Source: an uncultured Dehalococcoidales bacterium (GTDB lineage: Bacteria; Chloroflexota; Dehalococcoidia; Dehalococcoidales; CAYYQY01). Taken from it: a stretch of 58,196 bases of DNA. Positions 8,801 to 52,592 of the stretch are shown here, one piece after another. Within the stretch, counting starts at the first letter, position 1; the number at the start of each line of letters is the position of its first letter. The stretch is taken from contig CAYYQY010000004.1 in NCBI GenBank assembly GCA_964473905.1, positions 1 through 58,196 of the forward strand, in the 5' to 3' direction. The notes below the pieces were generated by a model. It saw only the letters and a list, made by a program, of their open reading frames with translations. It was not told where the DNA came from and searched no databases. Made by a program: the position numbers and the translations under genes.

Positions 8801-8827
8801 TATAAATCAGAGTCAACAGTAATTATA

Positions 8828-11639: not shown

Positions 11640-11643
11640 TATA

Positions 11644-14154: not shown

Positions 14155-15291
14155 TTAGAGGCTTTTTATGTACTCAACCGCCCACTCAATAGCCGCCTCT
14201 CCCTCCAGCTCCAACTCGTAGTCCGGGGTTAGCCCCTGCCCTTCGATAACATGTCCGCTCGGAGTCAGCCAGCGCGCCACTGTCAAATACAGACCGGAGC
14301 CGTCTTCGAACTGGTAAATCTTGTTAACGCTGCCCTTGCCGTATGTCTTCTGACCGGCGATAAGAGCCCTTTCGTAATCCTGTAGCGCCCCGGCCAGTAC
14401 CTCGGCACTGCTTGCCGAATAACCATTAACCAGCACCACCATGGGTAACTCGGTAAATACCGATGAGGCCGCCTTTATGGCGCGATAGTCAGTCTGCTCC
14501 TCTCTATCAACCACGCTGACCACCACGCCCTCCTTTAGAAAATGACCGGCAACACTAACGGTCGCTTCCAGTATGCCGCCCAAGTTGTACCTCAGGTCAA
14601 GGACAATGCCTCTCGTCCCCGTGTCCATGTTCTCTATAGCCTCACTCAGCTCTCTATCAGTGCGCTCGGTGAAACTGGTAATCCAGATATAAGCAACATC
14701 ATCCCTCATGTCATAAATGACACTGGGCAAATTAATCTCATCCCTGACTATAGTGATGTCCTGGGGCTCGGACTCTTCCTCGTGAATTACGGTAATGGTA
14801 ACCGGGGTGCCCTTCGGCCCGCGTATCTTCAGCACGGCCTCAGCAACCGCCATTTCCGCGGCGGACTCGCCGTTAATGGCGAGAATTATATCGCCCGCCT
14901 GTATCCCGGCCTCAATCGCCGGGGAGCCAACGAGGGGCGCCACAATAACCACCTGCCCATCCCTGACGGTAACCTCGGCGCCAATCCCTTCTATCTTCCC
15001 TTCCAGATCACTCAAACCCAGTTTATAGGCCTCACTATCCAGATAAGAAGTATAAGGGTCATCCAGTGCCTCAAGCATACCTTCTATGGCAGCTTCACTC
15101 AGCCTGCCGGCATCCAGTTTATCGGTGTCCACGTAATCGGTGACGAGCCTGTCCCATACCTGCACCACGACATCTAACCCCGGGTCATATTCAGGGCACT
15201 CTCTATCCGCCAGCCTGTAGCCGGCACCAAAGGCTAAGGCAACGGTAACCACGATTAATACTACCGTGGTAATTTTCAGTGTTTTTGACAT
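14155..15291 (-). CDS. ctpA: S41 family C-terminal processing protease (PDZ domain, membrane anchored)
   Basis: DPYTSY, GIG, LDLRYNLGG, SASSAE and TYGKGSV; start placed at MSKTLK behind a GAGGT RBS. Confidence 0.93.
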   Translation of the reverse strand: MSKTLKITTVVLIVVTVALAFGAGYRLADRECPEYDPGLDVVVQVWDRLVTDYVDTDKLDAGRLSEAAIEGMLEALDDPYTSYLDSEAYKLGLSDLEGKIEGIGAEVTVRDGQVVIVAPLVGSPAIEAGIQAGDIILAINGESAAEMAVAEAVLKIRGPKGTPVTITVIHEEESEPQDITIVRDEINLPSVIYDMRDDVAYIWITSFTERTDRELSEAIENMDTGTRGIVLDLRYNLGGILEATVSVAGHFLKEGVVVSVVDREEQTDYRAIKAASSVFTELPMVVLVNGYSASSAEVLAGALQDYERALIAGQKTYGKGSVNKIYQFEDGSGLYLTVARWLTPSGHVIEGQGLTPDYELELEGEAAIEWAVEYIKSL

Positions 15292-15462
15292 CCTGCACAC
15301 CTCTAACAAACCTTATATTATAGTATAGCAGTTATCAAGCGAGGGAAAAGGGTAAAGACCGCCCAATAATACCCATACCCCGGCTTTTATGCCGGAGCTG
15401 ACCTAGGATAATCCTGAGACCGAAAGAAGCCTGCGGGAAGAATGAAGGATATTTAAGAGGTT

Positions 15463-15687
15463 TTATTGAACCTGAGTGCGGACGGCGTCCACTATTTTTA
15501 TGGTATCGTCTATATTCACCAGACTGAGGGAAATACCGAGTTTCTTCAGTTCATTATAGCCCAGACCCCGGAAAAGATGTCTCCCCGCCACCCGGCTCAT
15601 CTCATCATATAAAGCTGGCCATTCCTGGCCCCGACGGTTAATACAGAAAAGAACAAACTCACGCGCCAGAGGATTAACAATCATCAT
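15463..15687 (-). CDS. Hypothetical protein (74 aa)
   Basis: Protein-like ORF with AAGGA RBS; no family recognised. Confidence 0.65.
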   Translation of the reverse strand: MMIVNPLAREFVLFCINRRGQEWPALYDEMSRVAGRHLFRGLGYNELKKLGISLSLVNIDDTIKIVDAVRTQVQ

Positions 15688-16064
15688 ATCTAACGGCTTT
15701 CCTTAACACATTAAAACTTCTCCTGAACTATACCCCTTAATCTCTTCATCGGCAAACCCCCTGACACTTAGTTACAGGCATTTTATAAGGATTATTAGCC
15801 CTTGATAACGCTCGGTTCTTCGATTTTACGGCACTTTTCTCAACCTTAAATACGGCACGGCGAGGTACTTTTTTTATAACTTTAGTACCCGTTTTAAACC
15901 CTTACTGCCGCTTGTTTCAGTGCCCATAAGTTGCCGCTATGAGAGCAGCGACAGAGGGTTAAAATTGAAGGAATCCGCAGGGTAAAAGCACGTCACCGGT
16001 AAAAGAGGGACACTACCGCTATCAAATACGTTGTTTCACCGTTAATGTGACGGGGCGGGGTGGA

Positions 16065-16451
16065 CTAACTTAAGTCCATAATACCGGGCTTACCTTCAGC
16101 GAGCAAACCCAGCAGTTCCTCCACGAGGCTGTCAGCCTGGGACACGAACTCTTTTATCTCCGTAAGCGCTATGTTGTCCAGGTGCAGCCCGCAAATAACG
16201 CAGACCGGTATTTTAGTCTTTTTAGCTATGGCATGTGCCTGTCTCTTGGCTATTTCGTCATCCCGGTGCCCACACCGGGTGATTACCGAGGACGAAGCCC
16301 TATCCTCTTCGTAATCATATTCGCCCACAGCCACCGCACCCAGATGGGCGTTCTCGTTATAGAGGCAAACGATGAGGTCGCTGCCCAGGTAATAAGCGAG
16401 CAGTTCGGTGCTAACTCTACCCTGGCTCCGGCTGATACGGTATTGTTTCAT
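16065..16451 (-). CDS. LpdD-like (prenylated-FMN chaperone / PAC-like fold) protein
   Basis: HLGAVAV, GHRDD and VICGLHLD motifs typical of LpdD-like proteins. Own promoter TTGTGT-N17-TATAAT (16491-16463). Divergent from a UbiD operon. Confidence 0.7.
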   Translation of the reverse strand: MKQYRISRSQGRVSTELLAYYLGSDLIVCLYNENAHLGAVAVGEYDYEEDRASSSVITRCGHRDDEIAKRQAHAIAKKTKIPVCVICGLHLDNIALTEIKEFVSQADSLVEELLGLLAEGKPGIMDLS

Positions 16452-16511
16452 AATGCACCGTTATTATAGCACCGTCCCTGAGCCCACACAATTTCTGATT
16501 TTTTGCCATAT

Positions 16512-16572
16512 TGTAACCTATTTGTAACTTCTTCTTTCTCTTTTTGCCGGATACTTGTAACCAGTTCTTAAC
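16512..16572. promoter_or_regulatory. Phased direct repeats, candidate OmpR-family operator
   Basis: TGTAAC at 16512, 16523 and 16556 and CTTAAC at 16567; all offsets are multiples of 11 bp. Confidence 0.5.
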
Positions 16573-16680
16573 CTTAATAGAGCAGACTATGTTTAGGTTA
16601 TTATGATTAGTGCTGTATGGCAAAGACGCAACTACGGGCAACACGGTATGAGTTTGAGGAAACGGTATATGCTTCAATGC

Positions 16681-16710
16681 TTGACACCGTAGAATGGTCA
16701 CTGCTAAAAT
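16681..16710 (+). promoter_or_regulatory. Sigma70-type promoter of the ligase-pps/ppc operon
   Basis: TTGACA-N18-TAAAAT with extended -10 TG. Confidence 0.65.
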
Positions 16711-16753
16711 CAGCGACCGAACAGTTATGAATTACGAATGAGGAGGAAACTGT

Positions 16754-18415
16754 ATGGCTGAAGCTTCGGTACGCAAGAAGAAAGAACTGCAGGAATTCAT
16801 TGACAAGGGACTCTGGGAAGACCTGACATGGGCAGCGCTGTGGGACAGGAATGCCAAAGAATACCCCGATAGAGAAGCCATGGTCGATTACCGGTCAAGA
16901 TGGACCTGGGCACAGGCTAAACTGGCGATAGACAGGTTAGCCCTGGGTCTGATGGATATGGGCTATAAGAAAGATGACGCTATCGTTGTTGAGCTACCCA
17001 GCTGGTCCGAGTGCATGATAGCCAGAATCGCCTGCGATAAAGCAGGTCTCATTGTAGCCCCCGTGTTAAGGAGTTTCCGTGAAACCGAGATGTTGCATAC
17101 ACTGGCCATTCTTGAGGCCAAGGGTGTAGTCATACCGTATAAGTGGGGCGGTTTTGATTACGTTAACATGATCCAGTCGCTGCGCCCCGACCTGCCCAAG
17201 CTGGAGCATATCTTTATTGTCGGTGACGAGGTTCCCGAGGGATGCATTTCCCTGAACAAGATGCTGGAGGAACCCCTGGAGAAGAAGTACTCTCCGGAGG
17301 AACTGGAAGCACTCTTTGCTAAAACAGTAATGCCCAGCACCGAGGTATCCGAACTCTCGCATACCACCGGCAGTACCGGTCTTCCCAAGCTCGCCGAATG
17401 GCCGGCTGTGCTTGGGTTGGCCCGCACTAAGGACACGGTAAATAAATTCGGGATTAACAAGGACGATGTTCTGGGCGCCCTATCCCCGGGCTGGGGCGGC
17501 ATGAACAACCCTACCTACCACGGTGGACCGTATGTCGGGGCAAAATTCGTCATGATGGAGCGCTGGGATATAGTCGAGGCTTTCAAGCTTATCGAGAAGG
17601 AGAAGATAACCTATTTCGCCATTACGCCAACCATGATGCGCATGATGATGGACCATGCCGATTTCGGTAAATATGATCTGAGCTCTCTCCGGGCTATCAT
17701 GGTATCAGGAGCGCCGTGCCCTCCCGGCTGGCCGCGAGAAGCCGAGGAAAAATTTGGTGCCAGGGTCATCAACACCTACGGTTCGAGAGACCTGGGCAGC
17801 ACAGCGTCGCCTTCATATACAGACCCGCCCGAAACCCGATGGGCAACCGCTGGCAAACCGAACAGCTGGGACGAGATTCATCTGCTCGACGAGGCAGGCA
17901 ATGATGTGCCGGAAGGAGAAGTCGGTGAGGTAGCCGTAAGAGCCGTGACCGGTTCCGGTGGTTACTTTAAGAACCCGGAAGCCAATGCGAGTTCCGCTAC
18001 TCCGGACGGTTTGTTCCGCATTGGTGACCTGGCCAGATTTGATGAAAACGGCAACCTGGTTATTGCCGGGCGCGCCAAGAATATAATTATCCGCGGCGGC
18101 GAGAATATTTATCCTACGGAGATAGAGGGTATGCTCGGTACCCACCCGAACGTAGTCCAGGCAGCCGTAGTCAAGATGCCCGACCCGCTCTTTGGTGAAA
18201 AAGCATGCGCCTATGTCGCTCTTAAACCGGGAGGCACTTTTGCCTTTGACGAAATGGTCTCTTTCCTGAAATCAAAGAAGCTCGCTGCCTTCAAACTGCC
18301 GGAAAGATTGGAAATTGTGGACAAGATACCCATGGTAGGCGACGGCACGAAGGTAGATTTGAAAAGTCTGGAAAAAGACATAGCCGGTAAACTCAAAGCC
18401 GAAGGAAAGGTATAG
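16754..18415 (+). CDS. AMP-forming acid-CoA ligase (aryl/cyclohexanecarboxylate-CoA ligase-like)
   Basis: HTTGSTGLPK, TYGS, GDLARFD, GRAKNIIIRGGENIYP and FKLPERL motifs. Confidence 0.9.
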   Translation: MAEASVRKKKELQEFIDKGLWEDLTWAALWDRNAKEYPDREAMVDYRSRWTWAQAKLAIDRLALGLMDMGYKKDDAIVVELPSWSECMIARIACDKAGLIVAPVLRSFRETEMLHTLAILEAKGVVIPYKWGGFDYVNMIQSLRPDLPKLEHIFIVGDEVPEGCISLNKMLEEPLEKKYSPEELEALFAKTVMPSTEVSELSHTTGSTGLPKLAEWPAVLGLARTKDTVNKFGINKDDVLGALSPGWGGMNNPTYHGGPYVGAKFVMMERWDIVEAFKLIEKEKITYFAITPTMMRMMMDHADFGKYDLSSLRAIMVSGAPCPPGWPREAEEKFGARVINTYGSRDLGSTASPSYTDPPETRWATAGKPNSWDEIHLLDEAGNDVPEGEVGEVAVRAVTGSGGYFKNPEANASSATPDGLFRIGDLARFDENGNLVIAGRAKNIIIRGGENIYPTEIEGMLGTHPNVVQAAVVKMPDPLFGEKACAYVALKPGGTFAFDEMVSFLKSKKLAAFKLPERLEIVDKIPMVGDGTKVDLKSLEKDIAGKLKAEGKV

Positions 18416-18427
18416 AAAAAGATACAA

Positions 18428-18511
18428 AGGAGGCGGTCCATATGTAATTTGCGCACACATCTGGGGTTCATGAGTATATTTTGACTGCAAAATATACTGT
18501 TTGCGTCAAAA
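18428..18511 (+). promoter_or_regulatory. SD + start-stop element and overlapping inverted repeats
   Basis: AGGAGG-N8-ATG-TAA at 18428-18447; AGTATATTTTG/CAAAATATACT at 18473-98; alternative TTTTGAC-GCAAA/TTTGC-GTCAAAA at 18479-18511. Confidence 0.4.
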
Positions 18512-18555
18512 TGCTTAAAAAATATAGTCCAATTGCCCAAATCGAGGAGGTTATA

Positions 18556-20235
18556 ATGGCAATAGAACCCAGGGAAGATTATAGTTACTACGAGTTTTCT
18601 GAGGATGATGTAGACGATACCTGGTGGGTCTGGGATATGGGGCATACCCCACCCACCGCACCGTGGTCACCGATGTTTGTCCAGTGGTGGATGTACGGTG
18701 CTACCGTGCCCCTGGCCAAAGCACTGGAAGATGCGGCCACACCAAGATCCAAGGGCCCTCGCAGCCGGTCAAACCGCGGCTACCACATGGTGACAGTCGC
18801 CGTGCCTCACAACGAAGAGGAGATACAGGAACGCAGCGAGAGGTACCGGCAAGCGGTTCTGCCCTGGCTTCAGGATACAGACAAGATACTGAACGAAATT
18901 AAAGCCGAGCTATCGGGAGTATACGAGAAGTACAAGAACTATAACTACGCCACAGCCAGCTGGAGCGAACTGATAGAATGGGTCCATGACTGGGAGCTAT
19001 TCAACTACCGTCACTGGTACCTGCACTTCTGGGCAATGGTATCCACCGGCGCTATCTTTGTTGACTGGGAGAACCTGAGCTACGAGCTACTGGGAATGGA
19101 CGCTCATCATCCCACGTTCCAGAGACTGATGAGAGGCTTTGACAACACCAACTTCGAGACCGAGAGACAGCTTCACGCGATAGCGCAGAAGGTCACTGAC
19201 GCGGGGCTAAAGGACATGGTAGTCAGCAGCAGTCCCGGAGAAATAATGGGTAAGCTGCTGGGCAGTGAAGCCGGCAAGCGCGTGCTCGCCGATTTTAACA
19301 AGTTCCTGGACAAGTATGGCTGGCGTAACTTCATGATGGACACCTACATGACACCCAGCTGGAGAGAGGACACATCACCGGCATGGCAGCGTATCCAGCA
19401 GTTTGTTAACCACCCCACCTTCAAACTGGATGAGATTATAGTTAAGCAAGCCGCGGAAAGAAAACTGGCAGAAGAAGAAATAGTAAACGCGCTGCCGGTT
19501 GACCAGAGAGAATGGTACCGCATACTTATGAAAGCAGGACAGGTAGCCAGTGTCTGGGCAGAAGACCACAGCTTCTTCTTTGAGATGCAGTCGCACTCAA
19601 TAGGCCGCTACTTCTGGCTGGAAGTGGGTAAGAGGCTCGTCGCCACCGGCGCTATTGAGCAACCTGATGACATCTTCATGCTGGTACCGCAGGAAGTATC
19701 CATATTGCTTTCCGACCCCTACAAGTGCAAAGCCAAGAAGAAGGCAAAAGCCCGCAGAGCCGAGTGGGACGCTGCCAAATCCTTCTTCCCCGAACCGTAC
19801 TATGGCAGAATTCCTCAGCCCGATGCCATGATGGAGATGATGGCCTCACAGGATGTCATCTTCACCAAGGTAACCCAGGAGAAACCGCCCGAGCCCAGAC
19901 CGGAACTCAAGGCTGACCTCATTGGCGTATCCGGCTCACCGGGTATCGCCGAGGGCATCGCCCGCGTCATAATGTCACCGGCCCAGATGGGCGAAGTACA
20001 GGAAGGCGAAATACTGGTAGCCCCCATCACAGACTCAACCTGGACTCCTGTCTTCAGTATAATCAAGGGAGTAGTGCTGAACACCGGCGCTCCGCTGTGC
20101 CACGCCGCTATTATTGCCCGCGAGTATGGCCTGGCCGCCGTGGTCAACACCGTTGAAGGCACTGACAAGATAAAGACAGGACAGCGAGTCAGGGTAGACG
20201 CTGACGTCGGCGCTGTTTACATACTGGATAAATAA
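18556..20235 (+). CDS. ppsA: Phenylphosphate synthase alpha-like subunit (PEP-utilising mobile His domain + N-terminal helical domain)
   Basis: C-terminal GVSGSPG..EG and GAPLCHAAIIAREYG phospho-His motif; no ATP-grasp or pyruvate-binding barrel; GAGGAGG RBS before ATG 18556. The symbol refers to phenylphosphate synthase, not PEP synthase. Confidence 0.8.
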   Translation: MAIEPREDYSYYEFSEDDVDDTWWVWDMGHTPPTAPWSPMFVQWWMYGATVPLAKALEDAATPRSKGPRSRSNRGYHMVTVAVPHNEEEIQERSERYRQAVLPWLQDTDKILNEIKAELSGVYEKYKNYNYATASWSELIEWVHDWELFNYRHWYLHFWAMVSTGAIFVDWENLSYELLGMDAHHPTFQRLMRGFDNTNFETERQLHAIAQKVTDAGLKDMVVSSSPGEIMGKLLGSEAGKRVLADFNKFLDKYGWRNFMMDTYMTPSWREDTSPAWQRIQQFVNHPTFKLDEIIVKQAAERKLAEEEIVNALPVDQREWYRILMKAGQVASVWAEDHSFFFEMQSHSIGRYFWLEVGKRLVATGAIEQPDDIFMLVPQEVSILLSDPYKCKAKKKAKARRAEWDAAKSFFPEPYYGRIPQPDAMMEMMASQDVIFTKVTQEKPPEPRPELKADLIGVSGSPGIAEGIARVIMSPAQMGEVQEGEILVAPITDSTWTPVFSIIKGVVLNTGAPLCHAAIIAREYGLAAVVNTVEGTDKIKTGQRVRVDADVGAVYILDK

Positions 20236-20315
20236 AGTCGGGTAAAAGCGATAAGTACCATGCCGGTTGCGGCAGCGATATTGGTGCCGGGTATGGCTGG
20301 CTAATTGCTAACGAA

Positions 20316-20351
20316 GGGTAGCCCTTTGTATTTGGGTGCAAAGGGCTACCC
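20316..20351 (+). promoter_or_regulatory. Intercistronic stem-loop
   Basis: GGGTAGCCCTTTG/CAAAGGGCTACCC 13-bp perfect stem with no U-tract. Confidence 0.6.
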
Positions 20352-20377
20352 GGAAAGACCTGGGGGAGAGATAGAAA

Positions 20378-21823
20378 ATGGCATTTAAGGATTTGAGAGA
20401 TTACATTTCAGCACTGGAGCAACACGGACAATTAAAAAGAGTTGACAGGGAAGTCGATTGGAACATTGAAGCAGGGGCTATTTCCCGACTGGTTTATGAA
20501 AAAGGCCTGCCTTCTCCCCTCTTTGAAAATGTTACCGGTTATCCCGGATATAGACTTTTTGGTGCGCCAATCAGCACCTTTTCCAAACTTGCCATCGCTC
20601 TGGGGCTGGACCCGGAGACCAGCATTAAAGAATTAATTAATTTCTATCTGGAGAAAAAAAAGGATCTTGTTAAGCCAGTCTTCGTGGATAAAAGCCAGGC
20701 ACCCTGCAAGGAAAATATTGACATAGGTGACCAGGTTGACCTTATGAAATTCCCGTCACCCATGTTGCACGAGGGTGATGGCGGCAGGTATTTATGCACG
20801 TGGCATATTAACGTCTCCAAGGACCCCGATACGGGCTGGATAAACTGGGGTTGCTACCGGGCTATGGTGTCCGGCAAGAACACACTGACCGGCCCGGTGA
20901 GTCCGGCAAAACACATGGGTTCTCAATATCAAAAATACAAAGCGAAAAATATCCCGATGCCATTTGCCATTGCCATAGGTCCTGAACCCGTAAGCGGTTT
21001 TATAGCCGGAGCCAGGGTAGCCGCCAACCTTTACGAAGCCGAACTGGTCGGTGCGCTGAGGCAGGAACCGATAGAACTGGTCAAATGTGAAACCGTAGAT
21101 TTAGAGGTGCCGGCAGGTTCTGAAATCGTAATTGAGGGCGAGATATCCCTGACTGAGAAAGACTGGGAGGGACCTTTCGGCGAGTTTGTCGGTTACAGCG
21201 CTACAGGAAGAAACAAAGCGCCGGTATGGAACGTAAAAGCGATCACCTACCGTAACAACCCGATAATAACCATGTCCAACACCGGAGTGCCCGTGGATGA
21301 ATACCACCTTGACGTAGGTCTGGTCAGGTCGGCAGAGCTGTATAACAGGCTGCGTGCCGATGGTATCCCGGTGGTAGCCGTAAACGCACCGCCGGAGGGT
21401 GTTGGCTTCCTGGTTATCGTCAGCGTATCCGGTAACACACCGAATATCGCGGAGAAGGTTACTTCCAGTATCTGGAGTTCTCCCCAGGGATCAAACGCCC
21501 CCTTCGTTTTTGTGGTAAACGATGACGTGGACGTCTTTAATATATGGGAGGTCATGCATGCTATGGTCACCAAGTGCCATCCCTACCGTGATATCTGGAG
21601 AGTGGAGCGGGCCTCGGCCATACCGTTTATGACCTTTCTAAATGCCTACGAGAGGCAACACCGCCTAGGGGCCAAGGTCTACTTCGATTGTACCTGGCCT
21701 ACTGACTGGGACCCTGTATCAGAAATTCCGCCGAAGATATCCTTTGACGCTAATTACTCCCATGAAGTGAAAGAGCACGTCCTCAAAAACTGGGAGAACT
21801 ATGGCTTTATCAGGCTAGCCTAA
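20378..21823 (+). CDS. UbiD-family (de)carboxylase, phenylphosphate carboxylase-like large subunit
   Basis: DGGRY, NWGCYR, EGPFGEFVGY and GVPVDE. C-terminal FDCTWPTDW...NWENYGF resembles the Ppc clade as recalled. Confidence 0.88.
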   Translation: MAFKDLRDYISALEQHGQLKRVDREVDWNIEAGAISRLVYEKGLPSPLFENVTGYPGYRLFGAPISTFSKLAIALGLDPETSIKELINFYLEKKKDLVKPVFVDKSQAPCKENIDIGDQVDLMKFPSPMLHEGDGGRYLCTWHINVSKDPDTGWINWGCYRAMVSGKNTLTGPVSPAKHMGSQYQKYKAKNIPMPFAIAIGPEPVSGFIAGARVAANLYEAELVGALRQEPIELVKCETVDLEVPAGSEIVIEGEISLTEKDWEGPFGEFVGYSATGRNKAPVWNVKAITYRNNPIITMSNTGVPVDEYHLDVGLVRSAELYNRLRADGIPVVAVNAPPEGVGFLVIVSVSGNTPNIAEKVTSSIWSSPQGSNAPFVFVVNDDVDVFNIWEVMHAMVTKCHPYRDIWRVERASAIPFMTFLNAYERQHRLGAKVYFDCTWPTDWDPVSEIPPKISFDANYSHEVKEHVLKNWENYGFIRLA

Positions 21824-21837
21824 GGAGGCCGTTTAAG

Positions 21838-22077
21838 ATGTTTAGAGAAGGCTATGAGATTTATACGAGCAAGCTGGGACAGCTTGAGCAGGGTAAGGAA
21901 TTACAATTAGAAATCAGGGACGTCAAGACCTACCAGCCCAAGAAGGTCAAGGCAACAATATCCTCCTCCCCGGAAAAGCTGCCTGACGGTGAGTTACTAT
22001 GGGTAAGGGGCATGCTGGGCCCGTTACTTGACGGGAAACCGTGGCGGATTAAAATAATAAGCCAGGTCCAGTCTTAA
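21838..22077 (+). CDS. Phenylphosphate carboxylase gamma subunit-like protein
   Basis: 79 aa with pattern EQGKELQLEIRD...KVKATISS..EKLPD..LWVR..G......WRIKII, matching the small Phenyl_P_gamma family as recalled; directly follows the UbiD gene. Confidence 0.75.
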   Translation: MFREGYEIYTSKLGQLEQGKELQLEIRDVKTYQPKKVKATISSSPEKLPDGELLWVRGMLGPLLDGKPWRIKIISQVQS

Positions 22078-22149
22078 GCCCGGAGCGACTTCATAACGGG
22101 GAGGGGAATATTAGCTCAAGAGTGGAGATATTTATGGAGGTAATATACG

Positions 22150-23181
22150 ATGACAGAATCTAAATTGGTTTACTGGTTTGACGAGGTAGATTCCAGTTCT
22201 AACGAACTTGTGGGGAAGAAAGGGGCAAACCTGGGCGAGATGACTAAATTGGGTATGCCCATAGTCCCGGGATACGTGGTCTCGATTGAGTCATTCCGCA
22301 GGTTTATGACCGAGACAGGAGTCGGCGACAAGATTGCCAAATATGGGGACAGCCTTGGAAAACTCACTAACGTAGACCAGGGTGAAGAAGCCGGCAGGAC
22401 TATTCGCTCATGGATAATGGAAACAGAAGCACCGGACTACCTGAAGGAAGAAATAGGCTCGTACTACGATGCCCTCTGCGAAAAGACAGGCATACCGGAT
22501 GTCCGCGTATCAACAAGGTCAGGAGGGCCAACCAGCCGTCCGGGTATGTTTGATACCTACTTGAATGTCAGCGGCCGGGAAAATGTCATCCAGCATGTAA
22601 AGAAAGTATGGGCCAGTGTTTATACCGGGCGCGCCATCTGGTATCGCCAGGCTCATGATGTTCCCTTTGCATCTGATGTGCTCGGCGTTGTCGTGATGAA
22701 GCTGGTGGATGCCCGCTCCGCGGGTATTATCTTCACTGCCGACCCGGTAACGGGTGACAGGTCACGAATTATCGTTGATTCCAGCTGGGGCATGGGTGAG
22801 GGAGTCGTTGGTGCCCGGGTTGAAGTAGACCGGTTTATAGTGGACAAAGAGACCCTGAACGTGGTGGACAAGGTTATCGGTAAGAAAGTAATGCGCATCG
22901 CCTGCGGCGAGCATCTCATTGAAGAAAGAGCCGTGCCCCCTGAACTGCAAGAGATTCCCTGCTTATCCGATGAAGAGCTAAGAGAAGTAGCCAGGATTGC
23001 CAGATCGATGGAGGTAACGCTGGGCGAACCCCAGGACATGGAATGGGCACTGGACGGCGAAATAGCCTTCCCCAAGAATGTATTTTTCTTCCAGACCCGA
23101 CCGGAGAAATTTGCTACCAATAAAGAGACAACCGCCATCGACCGTCTGGCAGATATTATGGCAAAAAGGGCGACCCGATAA
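22150..23181 (+). CDS. ppsB: Phenylphosphate synthase beta-like subunit (PEP-synthase N-terminal ATP-binding domain)
   Basis: VGKKGANLGEM, DTYLNV, SSWGMGEGVV, QDMEWA and FFQTRP; ends without His or barrel domains. Confidence 0.82.
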   Translation: MTESKLVYWFDEVDSSSNELVGKKGANLGEMTKLGMPIVPGYVVSIESFRRFMTETGVGDKIAKYGDSLGKLTNVDQGEEAGRTIRSWIMETEAPDYLKEEIGSYYDALCEKTGIPDVRVSTRSGGPTSRPGMFDTYLNVSGRENVIQHVKKVWASVYTGRAIWYRQAHDVPFASDVLGVVVMKLVDARSAGIIFTADPVTGDRSRIIVDSSWGMGEGVVGARVEVDRFIVDKETLNVVDKVIGKKVMRIACGEHLIEERAVPPELQEIPCLSDEELREVARIARSMEVTLGEPQDMEWALDGEIAFPKNVFFFQTRPEKFATNKETTAIDRLADIMAKRATR

Positions 23182-23221
23182 ATCTTTCCTGAAGAGCAAT
23201 TTACCAGTAAGTTTACAGCCG

Positions 23222-23271
23222 GTACCCACTTAAGTTAACTTAACTTAACTAAGGTAAGCTTGAGTGGGTAC
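23222..23271 (+). repeat. Long inverted repeat enclosing a TTAAC triplet repeat
   Basis: GTACCCACTTAAG/CTTGAGTGGGTAC arms; TTAAC x3 at 23235-49. Confidence 0.6.
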
Positions 23272-23360
23272 TTGTTGTGTCACAAATTAGCTTTAAACCG
23301 GCATGACTACGCATGATACGGAACACGCTTATTGCAGGCACTAGAGAGAAGGAGTTTTAG

Positions 23361-24599
23361 ATGAGTGATAATATAGTAATTCTGGTAATGGCTGAGGAGA
23401 AATGGGAGGAGGCCGATTTCCTACGTAGTCATATTGAATCCCGGGGTTTTCAAACCCAGATCCTGGATATAGGCCTAGTTCTGGAACCCGATGGCCCCTG
23501 TGATATTACCCGCGAAGAGATAATAGCTCTCAGCGGCAGAGACCCGGCAGAGGTCGCCCAGCTTTACCGCGGCAAACGAATGCCGGTTATGGTAGCCGGA
23601 GCTATCAAGAAAGTGGGTGAGCTTTATGCCCAGGGAAAGATACAGGGCATAATCAGCATCGGTGGCACTACGGGTACTCAGATGGCAACCCAGATAATGC
23701 GGTCACTGCCCTTTGGTTTCCCCAAGTTTGGCGTCTCGGCGACAATATCGCTGCTCGGCTTCGCTTCCAGCGCTTTCGGTACCGGCGACATAACCATGAT
23801 GAACTCGGTAGTAGATTTTACCGGCGCTAAAAGCATAATGATGCGGAACGTGCTGGCACGAGCGGCCGGGGCTATCTGCGGTATGATAGAAGGCAGCGCC
23901 AAGGTGCCCATTACACTGCCGGGTAAAGATGAAAAACCGCTGGTAGCTATAACACAAATCGGGCTGGTAGAGATAGTAGCCTCAACTGTTAGAAAGATGC
24001 TTGAGGAGAAAGGATACCAGGTAGTTGCTTTCTCCGCCTCCGGTGTATGCGACCGGGCTATGGAGAAGATAATTGAGACCAATAACCTGTTCGGTGCCGT
24101 AATTGATATTACTCCAGCCGGAGTAGGTGAAGAGCTTTTCAACTTTGGCATGAAGTCAGGCCCCACCCGCCTTGAAGCCGCCGGTGAGGCAGGTATCCCG
24201 CAAATAATATCAATGGGCAAAGTAAATATAGGCTGCCCGATAAGCAGAAACTATGCGAAACACCCCGAGTACCGCGAGCGCAAGAAGTATGAATACGATG
24301 CAGCACGGACTTTTATACGCCTTACTGAGGACGAGCTTGTACAGGTAGCGGATGCGATGGCGGATAAGCTCAATAAAGCCAAAGGACCGGTTACAGTGAT
24401 TATACCGACGGGCGGCTGGTCTGCGGTTGATAAGAAAGGCACCGACTTCTATGATGGCGAACTGGACAGGGTGTTCGCCAGTGAGTTTAAGAAGAAGCTG
24501 AAACCGGAGATAGAGGTTATAGAAGCAGAGGGTGACCTTGATACCGCCGAGTTTGCTCAACACATCGTGACGGCATTTGAGAATATTATGGCCAAGTGA
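23361..24599 (+). CDS. Tm-1-like ATP-binding domain protein (UPF0261)
   Basis: GIISIGGTTGT, MRSLPFGFPK, DITMMNSVVD, EAAGEAGIPQ and FIRLTEDE; 412 aa. Confidence 0.85.
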   Translation: MSDNIVILVMAEEKWEEADFLRSHIESRGFQTQILDIGLVLEPDGPCDITREEIIALSGRDPAEVAQLYRGKRMPVMVAGAIKKVGELYAQGKIQGIISIGGTTGTQMATQIMRSLPFGFPKFGVSATISLLGFASSAFGTGDITMMNSVVDFTGAKSIMMRNVLARAAGAICGMIEGSAKVPITLPGKDEKPLVAITQIGLVEIVASTVRKMLEEKGYQVVAFSASGVCDRAMEKIIETNNLFGAVIDITPAGVGEELFNFGMKSGPTRLEAAGEAGIPQIISMGKVNIGCPISRNYAKHPEYRERKKYEYDAARTFIRLTEDELVQVADAMADKLNKAKGPVTVIIPTGGWSAVDKKGTDFYDGELDRVFASEFKKKLKPEIEVIEAEGDLDTAEFAQHIVTAFENIMAK

Positions 24600-24628
24600 T
24601 ACATTATTTAGCAGAATGATATGTTTAG

Positions 24629-24660
24629 AAAAAGGCAGGCTATAGCGGGCTTGCCTTTTT
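24629..24660 (+). terminator. Intrinsic terminator closing the pps/ppc operon
   Basis: AAAAAGGCAGGC-loop-GCTTGCCTTTTT. Confidence 0.75.
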
Positions 24661-24789
24661 CTGCAACTGGGATTATCATTATTCTAGGAATCTGTATGGT
24701 TACAGGTAAAATTAAGGGAAAATATATTAACAAATATATTCCAGTGCATTATAGTATAGACTCCTGACTAGTATATTGGGAGGCAGAGA

Positions 24790-25020
24790 ATGGTCATGCC
24801 ACATATTGGGGCTCCAGAACTCATCATAATACTCGTGGTTATCCTTATCTTTTTTGGTGTGGGTAAATTGCCCCAGGCCGGCAGTGCGATCGGCAAGGGA
24901 ATACGGGCCTTCCGCAAGGGGCAGCAGGGTGAAGACGAGGAGGAAAAGGTAACCCCAGCCACCAAAAGAAAAGCCGCGAAGAAGACAGCATCAACGGCAA
25001 CCAGAACACGGAAAAGTTAA
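24790..25020 (+). CDS. tatA: Twin-arginine translocase TatA
   Basis: [31 protein letters not shown]. Confidence 0.92.
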
Positions 25021-25105
25021 TATTTCCTCCTCAGGCTATTAGAAGTAACTATACTTCTCGTACCCAGCTTTTAAGCAAGTGGCTGGATTAGATAGGGAGT
25101 GGGCT

Positions 25106-25339
25106 TTGAATTTTATGGACTTGGGCTGGCAGGAAATATTGCTAATCATGGCTATTGCGCTCATAATATTCGGACCGGGCAGACTGCCAGAGATTGGCAG
25201 AACCATGGGCAAGACGGTTCGTGCCTTCAGAAAAGCAACGTCCACACTGACGGCGGAGTTTACCAAAGAGCTGCAAAATGAAGAACATACCGACGAAAAG
25301 GGGAAGGAAAACCAGAATAATAAGCCCGCTGATTCCTAG
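25106..25339 (+). CDS. tatB: Twin-arginine translocase TatA/TatB-family subunit
   Basis: GWQEILLIMAIALIIFGPGRLPE; TTG start behind GGGAG (ATG at 25115 is an alternative). Confidence 0.85.
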   Translation: MNFMDLGWQEILLIMAIALIIFGPGRLPEIGRTMGKTVRAFRKATSTLTAEFTKELQNEEHTDEKGKENQNNKPADS

Positions 25340-25389
25340 GTTACAGACCTCCCTGATATATACTGAACGATTTACTGCCAAGCACTAGC

Positions 25390-26142
25390 ATGAGCAAGGT
25401 ATCTAAAGATAGAACGGCCAATAAGTTAACCCTTACTGGACACCTCGGTGAACTGCGGCGGCGCTTACTCAGGTCTCTCATCGCCCTACTCATTACTACC
25501 CTGGCCTCTTTTTTCTTTGCCGAGCGTATCTTTGACGTACTAATCGCGCCGGCAGGAAATATTGACCTTATATTCATTGAGATGACGGAGATGCTGGGTA
25601 CTTACATGAAAGTGTCTCTCGCCAGCGGTCTGGTATTCGCCATGCCCTACCTGGTGTACCAGCTTGTTATGTTCGTATCACCCGCGCTTACCAAGCAGGA
25701 AAAGAGATATGTTTACCTGATGCTGCCCTGGATAACACTCATGTTTGCTGGCGGTGTTATCTTCGCCTATTATATACTGATACCCCCGGCAGTCAATTTC
25801 CTGATAACCTTCGGCAGTGATATCGCCACCCCCCAGATTAAGATAGGCAACTATATCTCCATCGTAACCAGGCTCCTGGTGGCCATCGGCGCCGTTTTTG
25901 AGACACCGATAATAATACTGTTTCTAACCAGGATTGGTATAGTCACGCCCGATATGTTAGCCAGGAAGAGAAGGCATGCCATAGTGATAGCCTTCATTCT
26001 GGCCGCCCTGATTACGCCTACCTGGGACCCGATCAATCAAAGCATGGTCGCTTTACCGCTGATTTTCCTGTTTGAGCTCAGTATATGGCTATCCAAACTG
26101 GTAAAACGGAGAGAGACTGCCGAAGTCAGCCCGTCCCCGTAG
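25390..26142 (+). CDS. tatC: Twin-arginine translocase TatC
   Basis: HLGELRRRL, FVSPAL, FETP and ITPTWDP motifs. Confidence 0.96.
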   Translation: MSKVSKDRTANKLTLTGHLGELRRRLLRSLIALLITTLASFFFAERIFDVLIAPAGNIDLIFIEMTEMLGTYMKVSLASGLVFAMPYLVYQLVMFVSPALTKQEKRYVYLMLPWITLMFAGGVIFAYYILIPPAVNFLITFGSDIATPQIKIGNYISIVTRLLVAIGAVFETPIIILFLTRIGIVTPDMLARKRRHAIVIAFILAALITPTWDPINQSMVALPLIFLFELSIWLSKLVKRRETAEVSPSP

Positions 26143-26174
26143 TATTTGCTCAAGACCCGTAATCCCATCCGGGT

Positions 26175-26579
26175 TCATTGCCTGTCGGCTACCGCTTTCA
26201 CCAGAACAGTGCGCTGTCTGGGCCCGTCAAACTCGCAGAAAAAGAGCCCCTGCCAGGTACCGAGCATTAACCGACCGCCCTCTATCAGGACTGTCCGGCA
26301 ACTACCGAGCAGGCTGGCTTTTATATGGGCCGGTGAGTTGCCCTCCAGGTGACGGTAGCTGCCCGCCTCCGGTACCAGCCTGCTAAGATGTTCGGCCATA
26401 TCCCGGACTACATCAGGGTCGGCGTGCTCATTAATGATGATGCCGGCCGTGGTATGCGGCACGAAAACGTAGCAGACCCCGTCCTTAATCCCTGCCGAAC
26501 TGACAGCCTTCTGGACTTCAGAGGTTATATCCTGAAATTCTATTCTTAACCTGGTAGCTACCTTTAGTCTGATAATCAA
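26175..26579 (-). CDS. yjbQ: YjbQ/UPF0047 family protein
   Basis: PHTTAGIIINE, GNSPAHIKASL and LGTWQGLFFCEFDGPR motifs. Confidence 0.92.
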   Translation of the reverse strand: MIIRLKVATRLRIEFQDITSEVQKAVSSAGIKDGVCYVFVPHTTAGIIINEHADPDVVRDMAEHLSRLVPEAGSYRHLEGNSPAHIKASLLGSCRTVLIEGGRLMLGTWQGLFFCEFDGPRQRTVLVKAVADRQ

Positions 26580-28253: not shown

Positions 28254-28958
28254 ATGACGGCATATCAACATATAGTTATACTAATCACCGTCGCCGGCAT
28301 TGAGGAGGCACGGAAAATAGCCGGCATGCTGGTAAGCGAACGGCTGGCTGCCTGCTGCAACATCGTGCCCGGGGTAAGCTCAATATTCCGGTGGGCAGGT
28401 AAAACCGAAGAGGACGGCGAAATCCTGCTCGTGGTTAAAACCCGGGCCGGGCTTTTCCCGGGAATAGTTAACCTGGTTAAGAAGCATCATAGCTACGAGG
28501 TGCCGGAGATAATAGCCCTGCCCGTAGTTGACGGCAATGCGGACTACCTGGTCTGGATAGATAAGGAGACAGAAATGACGAGGCAGATTAAAATTAAAAT
28601 GGGTGATATCGAGCTTGAGGCTTGGCTAAATGAAACGGATACGGCAAATAAAGTGTGGGCCGGGCTACCTATCACGGCCATGATTAACCTCTGGGGTGAA
28701 GAGATATACTTCCCTACCCCCATTGAGAACGGCCTTGAGAATGCAGAGGAGGTAGTAAATTCGGGAGACATCGCCTACTGGCCAACCGGAAAGGCAATGT
28801 GCCTCTTTTTCGGCAAGACTCCGGCGAGCCGGGGAGAGGAAATAAGACCCATAAGCCCCGTTAATGTCATCGGCAAAATCACGGGGGATACGGAGTTGCT
28901 CAAAGAAGCCAGACAGGGTGACAGAATCACTATAGAGAAAAAAGAGCCTGCATCCTGA
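28254..28958 (+). CDS. cutA: CutA fused in frame to a cyclophilin-like fold (DUF369-type) domain
   Basis: RLAACCNI and HSYEVPEII in the first 107 aa; WGEEIYF, GDIAYWPTG, CLFFG and SPVNVIG after M108, which has its own AAGGAG RBS. Confidence 0.85.
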   Translation: MTAYQHIVILITVAGIEEARKIAGMLVSERLAACCNIVPGVSSIFRWAGKTEEDGEILLVVKTRAGLFPGIVNLVKKHHSYEVPEIIALPVVDGNADYLVWIDKETEMTRQIKIKMGDIELEAWLNETDTANKVWAGLPITAMINLWGEEIYFPTPIENGLENAEEVVNSGDIAYWPTGKAMCLFFGKTPASRGEEIRPISPVNVIGKITGDTELLKEARQGDRITIEKKEPAS

Positions 28959-30412: not shown

Positions 30413-30430
30413 CTTTTGTGGAGTGATGGT

Positions 30431-31498: not shown

Positions 31499-31515
31499 GG
31501 TTACGAAGTAAGACA

Positions 31516-49728: not shown

Positions 49729-49771
49729 GTACTTTCCGGTCAGGCAAAGGAGCAGGTGCATTAAAACTGCC

Positions 49772-52588: not shown

Positions 52589-52592
52589 TAGA

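Follow-up and report, generated by a model that had tools for sequence, protein, structure and literature searches.

What does an operon do that places a split PEP-synthase-like kinase, a UbiD-family enzyme and a CoA ligase side by side? We analyzed such an operon in a 58,196-nucleotide (58 kb) stretch of an uncultured Dehalococcoidales genome, hereafter the window. The chorismate synthase encoded there, whose best named hits have about 70% identity, makes a Chloroflexota/Dehalococcoidia origin plausible. The initial annotation had read it as a Thauera/Geobacter-type system, with a non-canonical subunit set, for the anaerobic activation of phenol or an analogue.

Six genes form one operon

All six genes are intact on the + strand (16754-24599), lie where the initial annotation had placed them, and have full-length family matches that agree with the identities it had proposed (Table 1). 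Each starts with ATG and is preceded by a GGAGG-like motif, indicative of a ribosome-binding site. The mechanical open reading frame of the PpsA-like gene could reach back to a TTG at 18481 (584 aa), but the true start is probably the ATG at 18556, because a GAGGAGG motif lies upstream and the database gene call P0130 starts there.

The promoter candidate matches 11 of 12 consensus positions, has the extended -10 TG, and is the top sigma-70-like match in 15300-25500; it lies 44 nt from the ATG of the ligase gene. A pattern scan found no + strand terminator-like site within the six-gene unit. The hairpin that follows the last gene, which the pattern-based scan did not list, folds with -25.2 kcal/mol (z = -5.18, with none of 200 shuffles equally stable). 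These three observations count toward a single transcription unit. At 65-85% protein identity, the metagenomic contigs L006, L048, and L128 keep the full gene order, and L049, L050, and L125 keep part of it. Retention of the order in independent contigs shows that the arrangement is not due to chance. The promoter-to-terminator unit described initially was confirmed, and on these sequence signals the six genes are a real operon.

Table 1 Predicted features of the operon and its upstream flank.
Feature	Position in window	Strand	Family match or signal
LpdD-like small protein, 128 aa, predicted prFMNH2-binding chaperone for UbiD	16065..16451	-	PF21758
Sigma-70-like promoter candidate	16681..16710	+	TTGACA, 18 nt spacer, TG-n-TAAAAT; consensus match only
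AMP-forming acyl/aryl-CoA ligase, 553 aa	16754..18415	+	AMP-binding (2e-54), AMP-binding_C
PpsA-like subunit, 559 aa	18556..20235	+	Helical Rph-type substrate-binding region, C-terminal swivel phospho-histidine domain
PpcA-like UbiD-family (de)carboxylase, 481 aa, predicted prFMN-dependent	20378..21823	+	UbiD_N, UbiD, UbiD_C (1e-64)
Small gamma-like subunit (phenylphosphate carboxylase gamma type), 79 aa	21838..22077	+	PF09662 Phenyl_P_gamma
PpsB-like ATP-grasp nucleotide-binding subunit, 343 aa	22150..23181	+	PPDK_N (7.3e-81, residues 19-329)
UPF0261 / Tm-1-like protein, 412 aa	23361..24599	+	UPF0261 (5e-43), UPF0261_C (2e-61)
Hairpin with trailing U run, intrinsic-terminator-like	24623..24667	+	Closes the unit; -25.2 kcal/mol

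The predicted kinase is a split dikinase of a non-canonical family

The PpsA-like protein carries a PEP-utilizers swivel domain (residues 507-577, 1.9e-18), in line with its precomputed annotation (PF27448 Rph_4th and PF00391). The histidine of its CHAAI motif (H541 in the 584-aa frame) is invariant in alignment A1 and nearly invariant (>=90%) in the 44-sequence alignment A3. The AlphaFold model of the protein (pLDDT 92.3) has a full-length match among solved structures only to the rifampin phosphotransferase 5FBU (E 2.5e-18, TMq 0.68), and PEP synthases and Rph match the PpsB-like protein through their N-terminal 300-340 residues. Together these matches support a predicted split PEP-synthase/Rph-type dikinase with its ATP-grasp part encoded by a separate gene. 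As in Rph (RPH-Lm; 5FBU, 5HV1), helical substrate and swivel His domains are combined in the PpsA-like protein, and the ATP-grasp domain is matched by the PpsB-like protein. In contrast, Rph is a single polypeptide, identity to it is about 18-19%, and the Rph HMM scores in the window (92.7, for the PpsA-like protein, and 194.5) are far below the cut-off of 999.

As canonical reference we used the metagenomic phenol cluster L091, validated with NCBIfam (PpcA 738, PpcB 678, PpsA 885). Like the PpsABC/PpcABCD system of Thauera aromatica, Geobacter, and relatives, the window has a split dikinase together with a PpcA-type UbiD and gamma-type subunit, and CoA activation would come later; this shared logic, which had been noted initially, was borne out by domains and best curated families. 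However, the PpsA-like and PpsB-like proteins are only ~32% and 35% identical to those of L091, and a CBS-type PpsC is missing from the operon. With the PpsA-like protein, a family of PRK08296 type (NF006153) scored highest; its model does recognize canonical PpsA, but the score was 190 bits against a cut-off of 578. In the tree the PpsA-like clade lies apart from L091 and belongs to a large non-canonical family.

A divergent Pps-like pair together with a UbiD carboxylase and nearby CoA ligases is also known from aniline activation in Desulfatiglans anilini, in which, relative to Thauera PpsA/PpsB, the phenylphosphoamidate synthase Pas-alpha/beta is 28% and 41% identical, and which illustrates that such modules take nucleophiles besides the phenolic OH (PMC7500099). 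Compared by description, the aniline system differs in having two PpcB-type UbiD subunits in two clusters, rather than one PpcA-type UbiD with a gamma subunit.

The UbiD protein is PpcA-like and falls in a separate clade

The UbiD protein exceeds the general family threshold (TIGR00148, 326; cut-off 245) and keeps the catalytic and metal positions N156, H179, E220, R161, E264, and E269. Among curated families, PpcA (TIGR02723) ranked first with 404.7 bits, followed by BagN/FevL (343.7) and VdcC (294), but this score is under the PpcA cut-off of 564.6. The protein is 46% identical to the PpcA of L091, and metal position 179 is His in the window and Asp in canonical PpcA. It grouped with the UbiDs of L048, L006, L128, L130, L007, and L008 in 200/200 bootstraps, separate from L091, and 0/200 bootstraps joined this clade and the canonical clade exclusively.

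The gamma-like protein matches PF09662 with 28.8 bits (gathering score 25) and scores below the cut-off of TIGR02725 (25.0; cut-off 135.55). Over its whole length it aligns with the L091 gamma subunit at 34% identity, with a common LWxR...KPWxxKI motif, and its orthologues in L006, L128, L007, L008, and L001 are 49-68% identical. Neither the 58 kb window nor the window-type loci contain PpcB, HAD-type PpcD, or UbiX, which accompany most canonical PpcA-type loci examined; the subunit set is non-canonical. In phenylphosphate carboxylase, HAD-type PpcD handles the phosphate ester, as is also remarked in PMC10865409. Its lack here counts against the use of an aryl phosphate by a lone alpha and gamma UbiD.

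We considered whether these proteins could be true PpsAB/PpcA orthologues acting on phenol that have diverged in a deep-branching phylum. PpcA and PRK08296 (PpsA-type) are the top curated matches, and some orthologues carry the JGI label 'phenylphosphate carboxylase alpha subunit'. Yet the window lies far under the equivalog cut-offs that L091 clearly exceeds, the clades are separate, the subunits usual at canonical loci are lacking, and the ligase is outside the benzoate-CoA ligase family, unlike the member found at L129. We regard this as the least probable of the readings considered here. The sub-cut-off scores, separate clades, missing subunits, and different ligase family mean that phenol is not indicated, and the Thauera/Geobacter assignment was not upheld. 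Activation of some analogue is still favored by the Pps/Ppc-like architecture and by the aromatic or alicyclic-CoA context of relatives. Sequence does not single out a substrate, and phenol is not the default one.

Divergent from the operon and just upstream of it lies an LpdD-like gene that the initial annotation had not listed (PF21758, 89.5 bits; cut-off 27). Its homologue in L006, 69% identical and in the same position, has the precomputed label LpdD_chaperone, and related Chloroflexota-type UbiDs in L064, L067, L072, L076, L078, and L080 likewise have LpdD-like genes beside them. The chaperone function of LpdD has been described alongside gallate decarboxylase (PMC10865409). The window thus resembles VdcBCD and LpdBCD with LpdD in having a prFMN UbiD, a small accessory subunit, and an adjoining LpdD-family gene, but differs in its VdcC score (294 < 650), the lack of an adjacent UbiX, and the presence of a dikinase and CoA ligase.

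The sister Chloroflexota UbiDs (L001, L051, and L005) occur without any kinase and beside transporters, which suggested that the whole clade may be decarboxylases. A hydroxy-aromatic acid would then be taken up and lose its carboxyl group to UbiD and gamma, as in VdcCD/LpdC-type enzymes, with the ligase acting on the substrate or a second carboxyl and the kinases working at a different step, such as turning a phenolic OH into a better leaving group. The neighbors of these kinase-free UbiDs are solute-binding proteins and TRAP transporters, an aromatic-acid/H+ symporter-family gene (L008) and a binding-protein ABC system (L130) adjoin the module itself, and every solved UbiD relative is a decarboxylase, as is the enzyme with which LpdD was described. 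This direction nevertheless appears unlikely: it leaves a dikinase costing two ATP equivalents without a role, the gamma-like subunit, like the best curated family, indicates a carboxylase-type complex, and in the window, L006, and L128 alike the operon has no adjoining transporter.

The UPF0261 protein and the ligase depart from characterized enzymes

The sixth protein was rightly called Tm-1-like, being a member of UPF0261 (NF002674, 354.3; cut-off 335); its kinship with MarK and its degenerate nucleotide motif had not been recognized. MarK (Saro_1862, 9MPY), described in 2025, is a phenolic kinase of this family, and its phosphorylation of a phenolic OH, converting ATP to ADP, is the only known UPF0261 activity (PMC12624787). 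Residues 5-410 of the window protein align with MarK (E 1.4e-46), but the nucleotide-site motif reads MAEEKW instead of TLDTKG. MarK D14, T15, H219, and H304 are replaced by E, E, S, and Y, with K16 and G195 retained; H219 binds the phenol, and H348, which binds the ketone oxygen, is Val. We aligned the 134 closest UPF0261 cluster representatives of comparable length and found DTK with the His in 95 of them. The EEK motif without the His occurred in only two, the nearest (P0370 and P0371; 58-59% identical).

A UPF0261 gene was present in the retrieved region of 9 out of 39 Pps-bearing loci, compared with 3 out of 79 others (Fisher p = 0.002), and among the nine is canonical L091, in which the gene adjoins the cluster. 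The window protein is 71-82% identical to its counterparts in orthologous operons, on par with the other five proteins, and is therefore under constraint. Because other residues stand in this clade where MarK has the Asp-Thr at its ATP site and the His that contacts the phenol, we read UPF0261 as a putative conserved accessory or aryl-phosphate-handling partner and not as a second MarK-type kinase.

The combination of aromatic kinase, carboxylase, and CoA ligase recalls MarK and the AcvAB/HpeHI systems, and MarK-type and Pps/Acv-type kinases co-occur in many genomes (PMC12624787). By the logic of acetovanillone and 4-hydroxyacetophenone degradation, the OH of an aryl ketone or aldehyde would be phosphorylated as protection or activation, and UbiD would carboxylate elsewhere before the CoA ligase acts. 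MarK itself phosphorylates such compounds, and at least one member locus of the large PpsA-like family, L021, has the AcvAB/HpeHI plus AcvCDE plus ligase layout (PMC12624787), with biotin carboxylase, carboxyltransferase/BCCP, UPF0261, ligase, PpsB, and two PpsA genes. In the window, by contrast, the carboxylase is a UbiD and not a biotin enzyme. UbiD enzymes place the carboxyl group on sp2 ring or acrylic carbons rather than on an acetyl methyl (PMC10865409), both substrate-contacting histidines of MarK are lost, and the operon has no phosphatase or beta-ketoacyl-CoA hydrolase. We therefore consider this logic quite unlikely here.

All top curated families for the ligase were sub-threshold, led by cyclohexanecarboxylate-CoA ligase (298.5; cut-off 792) and DHB-AMP ligase (255). 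It falls outside the benzoate/4-hydroxybenzoate-CoA ligase family. The nearest solved structures are the aryl-acid adenylating DhbE, EntE, and salicylate-AMP ligase (E 4e-71 to 1e-68), but the hydroxyl-binding positions of DhbE are not conserved. The ligase thus differs from that of the canonical system both in family and in being encoded within the operon. The putative benzene/naphthalene carboxylases (AbcA/AbcD, BzlA) of strict anaerobes are PpcA-like UbiDs encoded directly beside an aryl-CoA ligase gene. AbcA/AbcD clusters carry UbiX and a benzoate-CoA-ligase-family enzyme (BzlA is a benzoate-CoA ligase) and, to our knowledge, no Pps-like kinase. The window differs in each of these respects, with a Pps-like kinase, no UbiX, and a ligase of another family.

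Relatives of the module lie near catabolic genes

At least seven metagenomic contigs carry the same module, in several cases beside anaerobic aromatic or alicyclic-CoA genes. PpsA-like and UPF0261 genes adjoin UbiD in every member of the 200/200 clade, and all members except L130 have, besides the gamma-like gene, a ligase at 52-85% identity to that of the window; in L130 the gamma position holds only an unmatched 58-aa ORF. The neighborhood of L007 includes an IclR regulator, BadH-like and BadI/MenB-like proteins, a thiolase, and a ferredoxin. L008 also has a PpcB-like UbiD, L129 a benzoate-CoA ligase family member (400 bits; cut-off 375), two AOR-family enzymes, and a CO_deh_flav subunit, and L130 an IOR alpha-like gene. 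No PpsB-like gene was seen in the retrieved parts of L007 and L008, and their PpsA-like genes belong to other subclades than that of the window. The kinase genes thus keep less closely to the module than do those of the UbiD-gamma-ligase core.

In the window, the operon has the shikimate (aro) genes at 7715-14145 on one side and tatA/tatC on the other; pheA and tyrA are at 30416-32334. These surroundings, the aro-ctpB-lpdD-operon-tat order conserved in L006, and a GC content equal to that of the flanks, which looks like core genome rather than an island, would agree with a housekeeping or biosynthetic role in aromatic amino-acid or cofactor metabolism. However, the same operon in L128 has unrelated genes upstream, the module lies beside catabolic genes, regulators, and transporters in L007, L008, L129, and L130, and no biosynthetic route known to us requires a dikinase together with UbiD and a CoA ligase. 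A housekeeping role is thus very unlikely.

Proposed function

All steps proposed here derive from homology, and identity to the closest validated system is 30-46%. The PpsB-like ATP-grasp protein would bind ATP and charge the conserved swivel-domain histidine of the PpsA-like protein, which would pass the phosphoryl group to a substrate in its own Rph-type helical domain (X-OH + ATP -> X-O-P + AMP + Pi). The PpcA-like UbiD with the gamma-like subunit would carboxylate the ring as the phosphate leaves, using prenylated flavin that a UbiX from another part of the genome would make and the LpdD-like chaperone would load. The ligase would convert the new aromatic acid to a CoA thioester for reductive or beta-oxidation-like breakdown.

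Counted against activation are the lack of PpcD, the absence from the 58 kb window of UbiX and of the benzoyl-CoA or 4-hydroxybenzoyl-CoA reductases that the initial annotation had proposed to look for, the kinase-free sister UbiDs, and the housekeeping surroundings. Most likely, the system phosphorylates a phenolic or aminoaromatic compound at the expense of ATP, carboxylates its ring, and activates it with CoA. We give a somewhat better than even chance that the operon is a self-contained module that activates a hydroxyl- (or amino-) bearing aromatic without oxygen, in the manner of phenylphosphate synthase/carboxylase but with a smaller and different subunit set. As predicted from its genes, the system resembles anaerobic phenol activation but is a separate, so far undescribed variant.

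A six-gene operon in an aromatic amino-acid biosynthesis neighbourhood

We found six plus-strand open reading frames (ORFs) with Pfam assignments, a sigma-70-like site ahead of the first and a closing hairpin after the last. The promoter-to-terminator unit proposed by the initial annotation is thus borne out. Each of the six genes has a GGAGG-like motif upstream of its ATG start. In the PpsA-like gene, GAGGAGG precedes the likely start, which is also where the database gene call begins. A pattern scan detected no plus-strand terminator-like site inside the operon, and the GC content of the operon was that of its flanks. Three gaps (18416-18555, 20236-20377 and 23182-23360) measure 140-180 nt, wide by the standard of tightly coupled operons. 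They contained no Rfam match and no plus-strand terminator, and the gap 5' of the UPF0261 gene was shorter in L128, a comparison contig carrying the same operon. An Rfam scan of positions 15000-26000 (E <= 0.1) identified no RNA element, and no tRNAs were found in the window.

Features of the operon and its upstream flank
Feature	Position	Strand	Evidence or remark
CtpB-like protease gene	14155-15309	-	after the aro operon
LpdD-like gene	16065-16451	-	PF21758, 89.5 bits (cut-off 27)
Sigma-70-like site	16681-16710	+	best such match in the region
AMP-forming CoA ligase	16754-18415	+	Pfam AMP-binding and AMP-binding_C
PpsA-like protein	18481-20235 (ORF); likely start ATG 18556	+	C-terminal PEP-utilizers swivel domain
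UbiD	20378-21823	+	three UbiD domains, PF20695, PF01977 and PF20696
Gamma-like protein, 79 aa	21838-22077	+	PF09662 Phenyl_P_gamma, 28.8 bits (gathering score 25)
PpsB-like protein	22150-23181	+	PPDK_N
UPF0261 protein	23361-24599	+	PF06792 and PF23189
Hairpin with U tail, 3' end of the unit	24623-24667	+	-25.2 kcal/mol, z = -5.2

The operon sits inside an aromatic amino-acid biosynthesis neighbourhood, because an aro operon encoding the complete shikimate pathway from DAHP synthase to chorismate synthase (7715-14145) lies just upstream and pheA/tyrA (30416-32334) lies 6 kb downstream. The best named matches to the chorismate synthase, at ~70% identity, come from Dehalococcoidia and Chloroflexota, with one labelled 'Deltaproteobacteria'; an origin in Dehalococcoidia is plausible without being firm. 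A housekeeping role is one rival explanation for the operon. Neither L128 nor the more distant relatives preserve the upstream context, and we therefore consider a functional link to the flanking shikimate genes improbable. Directly 3' of the operon (24790-26579) are tatA (76 aa), a second tatA/B-like ORF, tatC and, on the minus strand, a yjbQ-family gene. The order operon-tatA-tatA-tatC-yjbQ is kept in L128 and in a second contig with the operon, L006, though the upstream genes of L128 differ. No functional link between the operon and the tat genes was evident.

The remainder of the window is housekeeping, comprising the aro, tat, yjbQ and pheA/tyrA genes, SUF genes, a glycine-betaine ABC system, a hydrogenase and an ABC/ligase cluster. 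The four-gene cytoplasmic NiFe hydrogenase cluster (42555-46427; Fer4_22 protein, FAD/NAD-binding protein, small and large subunits) has a layout resembling group 3b. Positions 49727-57825 encode a 645-aa AMP-binding protein, two branched-chain-type permeases, a Peripla_BP_6 binding protein, an ABC ATPase and a PaaK-type (phenylacetate-CoA-ligase-like) 430-aa ligase, with a CoA-transferase gene on the opposite strand. This may be a second activation/uptake cluster, for import and activation of an organic, possibly aromatic, acid. Other single ORFs encode a CutA1 domain fused to a cyclophilin-like domain (28254-28958) and a phage T4 gp19 tail-tube domain (48871-49473, 101 bits). We noticed no further phage or contractile-system genes beside the latter, and a 4HBT thioesterase ORF (48214-48648) lies just upstream of it.

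The predicted kinase is split between two genes

The PpsA-like protein is predicted to consist of a substrate-binding region of the rifampin phosphotransferase (Rph) type and a phospho-histidine domain, with the ATP-grasp part absent, because its AlphaFold model (44 homologues in the alignment; pLDDT 92.3, pTM 0.90) matches the Rph structure 5FBU along its whole length in a fold search (E 2.5e-18, TMq 0.68). Beyond the swivel domain, that search matched no fold other than Rph. A PDB sequence search with the protein gave a match limited to the C-terminal His domain, in the last 100 residues. The phospho-histidine is invariant in an alignment of 4 sequences (A1) and at least 90% conserved in one of 44 (A3). 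The PpsB-like protein provides the ATP-grasp part that the PpsA-like protein lacks. The split architecture of PpsABC is present, with a substrate/His-swivel protein, a separate ATP-grasp protein and the phospho-histidine kept. Rph has its ATP-grasp, rifampin-binding and swivel domains in one chain, whereas here they are divided between two genes; Rph and the PpsA-like protein share a fold in the last two of these domains. We rejected membership in Rph, given the two genes and scores on Rph models of 92.7 and 194.5 bits, against a cut-off of 999 for NF041857.

In the phenylphosphate synthase of Thauera, a third subunit, PpsC, is a CBS-domain stimulating protein. No CBS-domain ORF was found in or beside the operon, and the sole CBS match in the window was an ABC-transporter ATPase (39070-40179).

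The UbiD, its putative chaperone and the CoA ligase

The UbiD scored 326.3 bits on TIGR00148, above the cut-off of 244.85. It has N156, H179 and E220 at the metal/prFMN positions and R161, E264 and E269 at the Arg-Glu-Glu positions, which we take to correspond to N168, H191, E233, R173, E277 and E282 of A. niger Fdc1. Its architecture, score and these positions all place it, as judged from sequence, in the UbiD family of prFMN-dependent (de)carboxylases. Operation in the decarboxylase direction is another, less likely explanation. The end of the divergent LpdD-like gene lies 302 nt upstream of the first gene of the operon. This gene is kept at the equivalent position in L006, and related UbiDs in several other contigs are also accompanied by LpdD-like genes. 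LpdD itself acts as a chaperone, binding reduced prenylated flavin and aiding the activation of UbiD enzymes (PMC10865409). The Pfam match and the adjacency to the UbiD mark the divergent ORF, which the initial annotation had passed over, as an LpdD-family member.

The nearest solved structures to the CoA ligase are aryl-acid adenylating enzymes (DhbE, EntE and salicylate-AMP ligase). Its nearest curated family is cyclohexanecarboxylate-CoA ligase, and every curated match was sub-threshold. The alignment was read with the residue roles that we presume for DhbE, and the hydroxyl-binding positions were not kept. We therefore drew no inference about the substrate from these three enzymes. The benzoate/4-hydroxybenzoate-CoA ligase model TIGR02262 (cut-off 375.25) was absent from the 25 best families of the ligase, the lowest of which scored 160 bits, which places the ligase outside that family. 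On the same model, the ligase of L129, a contig with a related PpsA-like gene, scored 400.3 bits.

The operon resembles phenylphosphate synthase/carboxylase in design only

As a reference we used L091, a metagenomic canonical phenylphosphate synthase/carboxylase cluster, in which PpcB scored 678 (cut-off 469), PpcA 738 (565) and PpsA 885 on NF006153 (578). L091 also holds PpsB, gamma, a third UbiD, UbiX and two HAD-type PpcD-like genes. The window UbiD is 46% identical to L091 PpcA and scored 404.7 bits on TIGR02723 (PpcA), against a cut-off of 564.6 and 738.5 bits for the L091 protein. The PpsA-like protein is ~32% identical to L091 PpsA, and scored 190.1 bits against the curated cut-off of 578. 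The gamma-like protein aligns end to end with L091 gamma at 34% identity; it scored 25.0 bits on TIGR02725 (cut-off 135.55), on which L091 gamma itself reached only 56 and is also below.

A neighbour-joining tree covered 110 UbiDs, of which 57 entered a bootstrap analysis with 200 replicates. It was built from fetched loci, with the canonical ones among them standing for the Thauera/Geobacter type. Window-type UbiDs and canonical PpcA proteins each formed a clade in 200/200 bootstraps and were exclusive sisters in 0/200. The window UbiD thus falls outside the canonical PpcA clade. The neighbours of the window-type clade, weakly supported, were kinase-less multi-copy UbiDs from Chloroflexota-type contigs. 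Two such contigs, L001 and L051 (3300-13300), hold three to four paralogous PpcA-like UbiD genes and no kinase, together with a gamma-like small ORF, solute-binding proteins and a fumarate-reductase-like flavoprotein; this large UbiD expansion is the nearest neighbour of the window's UbiD clade. In the PpsA tree, canonical PpsA lies far outside the large family that holds the window protein, in a different clade.

The gene content also differs. No second UbiD (PpcB) was found in the 58 kb, where tblastn with L091 PpcB returned only the window UbiD (36%); among the canonical loci fetched, most have PpcB alongside. Queried with both L091 copies of the HAD/KdsC-type phosphatase-like subunit (TIGR02726), tblastn found nothing in the window or in six related loci (L006, L007, L008, L048, L128 and L130), and HAD-type PpcD-like copies in 24 other loci. 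UbiX and PpcD occur in most canonical loci fetched and in no window-type locus. Neither UbiX nor a HAD-type PpcD was found in the 58-kb window, and the search for benzoyl-CoA and 4-hydroxybenzoyl-CoA reductases there was likewise negative.

The initial annotation had proposed a phenylphosphate synthase/carboxylase-like operon that activates phenol or an analogue. The gene design agrees with this claim (split kinase, UbiD and gamma-like protein). Membership does not, because the scores lie below the NCBIfam cut-offs, the trees separate the proteins from validated L091, and PpcD and UbiX are missing from window-type loci. On these sequence comparisons the operon appears Pps/Ppc-like in design and not a member of canonical PpsABC/PpcABCD. 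A canonical phenol pathway is a further rival explanation, and on this evidence a very unlikely one.

The module is conserved in metagenomic contigs

The six genes occur in identical order in L006, L048 and L128 (65-85% identity) and partly in L049, L050 and L125. More distant members of the window's UbiD clade were observed in three contigs. L007 (UbiD 59% identical) has an IclR regulator, ligase, UbiD, gamma, PpsA-like gene and split UPF0261, adjoining BadH-like, BadI/MenB-like, thiolase and ferredoxin genes and a large Fe-S flavoprotein. L008 (56%) has ligase, PpsA-like gene, UbiD and gamma, with UPF0261, a PpcB-like UbiD and a transporter of the aromatic-acid/H+ symporter family upstream. 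L130 (55%) has a GntR regulator, IOR-alpha-like gene, UbiD, UPF0261, PpsB, PpsA, a second UbiD and an ABC system. L129, whose PpsA-like protein is 58% identical, combines PpsA/PpsB with two AOR-family enzymes, UPF0261, a benzoate-CoA-ligase-family enzyme and a CO_deh_flav subunit. These four gene contexts point to anaerobic aromatic catabolism.

The UbiD-gamma-ligase core is more constant than the kinase part, because the PpsA-like genes of L007 and L008 fall in other subclades and the fetched parts of these contigs showed no PpsB-like gene. A scan of genome representatives with the PpsA-like alignment uncovered 38 loci, none with the UbiD module, and among the loci fetched the full operon was seen in metagenomic contigs only.

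A variant UPF0261 protein accompanies the predicted kinase

The UPF0261 protein scored 354.3 bits on NF002674 (cut-off 335) and has both UPF0261 domains, which places it in the family. Among solved structures it is nearest to 9MPY, the MarK protein from Novosphingobium aromaticivorans (E 1.4e-46). MarK, described in 2025, phosphorylates acetovanillone and similar compounds at their phenolic OH, converting ATP to ADP; before this, no catalytic activity had been reported for the family (PMC12624787). Its homologues show over 90% conservation at D14, T15 and K16 in the ATP site and at G195, H219 and H304 in the phenol site (PMC12624787). The window protein keeps only K16 (K14 here) and G195 (G201), with D14 and T15 replaced by Glu, H219 by Ser and H304 by Tyr. 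With four of the six conserved residues replaced, we rejected it as a MarK orthologue. An aryl-ketone-type pathway is the rival explanation on which both this kinship and these replacements bear.

The TLDTKG motif (DTK) is present together with the phenol-binding His in most Pps-linked UPF0261 proteins of other loci, whereas MAEEKW and Ser stand in their place in the window, L006 and L128. We aligned the 134 nearest cluster representatives whose length was comparable; 95 have DTK and His, and only the nearest two (58-59% identical) have the EEK motif without the His. The protein is 71-82% identical among orthologous operons, as conserved as the neighbouring operon proteins. It is thus under constraint, although its mode of action probably departs in some way from that of MarK.

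Among the fetched loci, a UPF0261 gene was found in 9 of 39 Pps-bearing loci, canonical L091 among them, versus 3 of the remaining 79 (p = 0.002). Within L021 (482-11641), from a 'delta proteobacterium' MAG, biotin carboxylase, carboxyltransferase/BCCP, UPF0261, CoA ligase, PpsB and two PpsA paralogues form a string that continues into HdrD-like and ETF genes. This locus, with its biotin carboxylase, is an anaerobic counterpart of the kinase-carboxylase layout of the acetovanillone/hydroxyacetophenone (Acv/Hpe) system.

Proposed function and significance

The most likely reading is that the dikinase would produce an aryl phosphate or phosphoamidate, that the UbiD with the gamma-like subunit would carboxylate the ring, and that the ligase would form the CoA ester, with the LpdD-like protein helping flavin loading. 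The main gaps in this reading are that the window holds neither a HAD-type subunit for the phosphate ester nor UbiX. A more speculative extension, which we consider improbable, is that split Pps/Rph-type aromatic dikinases include UPF0261 as a third, integral component, more than an alternative kinase. Aryl-phosphate handling, classically the task of HAD-type PpcD or PpsC, would then have passed in this Chloroflexota-type clade to a UPF0261 variant whose nucleotide site is remodelled (AEEKW) and which lacks the phenol-binding His. The outcome would be a minimal alpha-plus-gamma UbiD carboxylase with a non-phenol substrate and a new type of ATP-driven aromatic carboxylation.

The operon exists as described and is conserved, and its gene set hints at a mechanism; it does not form a new category of system, and its function is predicted. 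Together with its relatives it represents a distinct, widely distributed clade that combines a non-canonical dikinase, a single PpcA-like UbiD and a ligase. In our literature search for the operon or a link between UPF0261 and Pps/Ppc, the only finds were the MarK paper and a 2016 single-cell study that reported PpcA-like and small-subunit genes in marine Dehalococcoidia (PMC4959651).

To our knowledge, only a handful of solutions for the anaerobic activation of phenolic or aminoaromatic compounds are known, and the characterised ones all come from Proteobacteria and Desulfobacterota-type anaerobes. The Dehalococcoidia-related lineage is plentiful in sediments and its metabolism is poorly understood. 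UbiD carboxylases are of interest in biocatalysis for fixing CO2 onto aromatics. If active, the operon would represent an evolutionarily separate route for ATP-driven aromatic carboxylation, would reveal the minimum needs of a UbiD carboxylase, and would give the very widespread UPF0261/Tm-1 family a physiological context.
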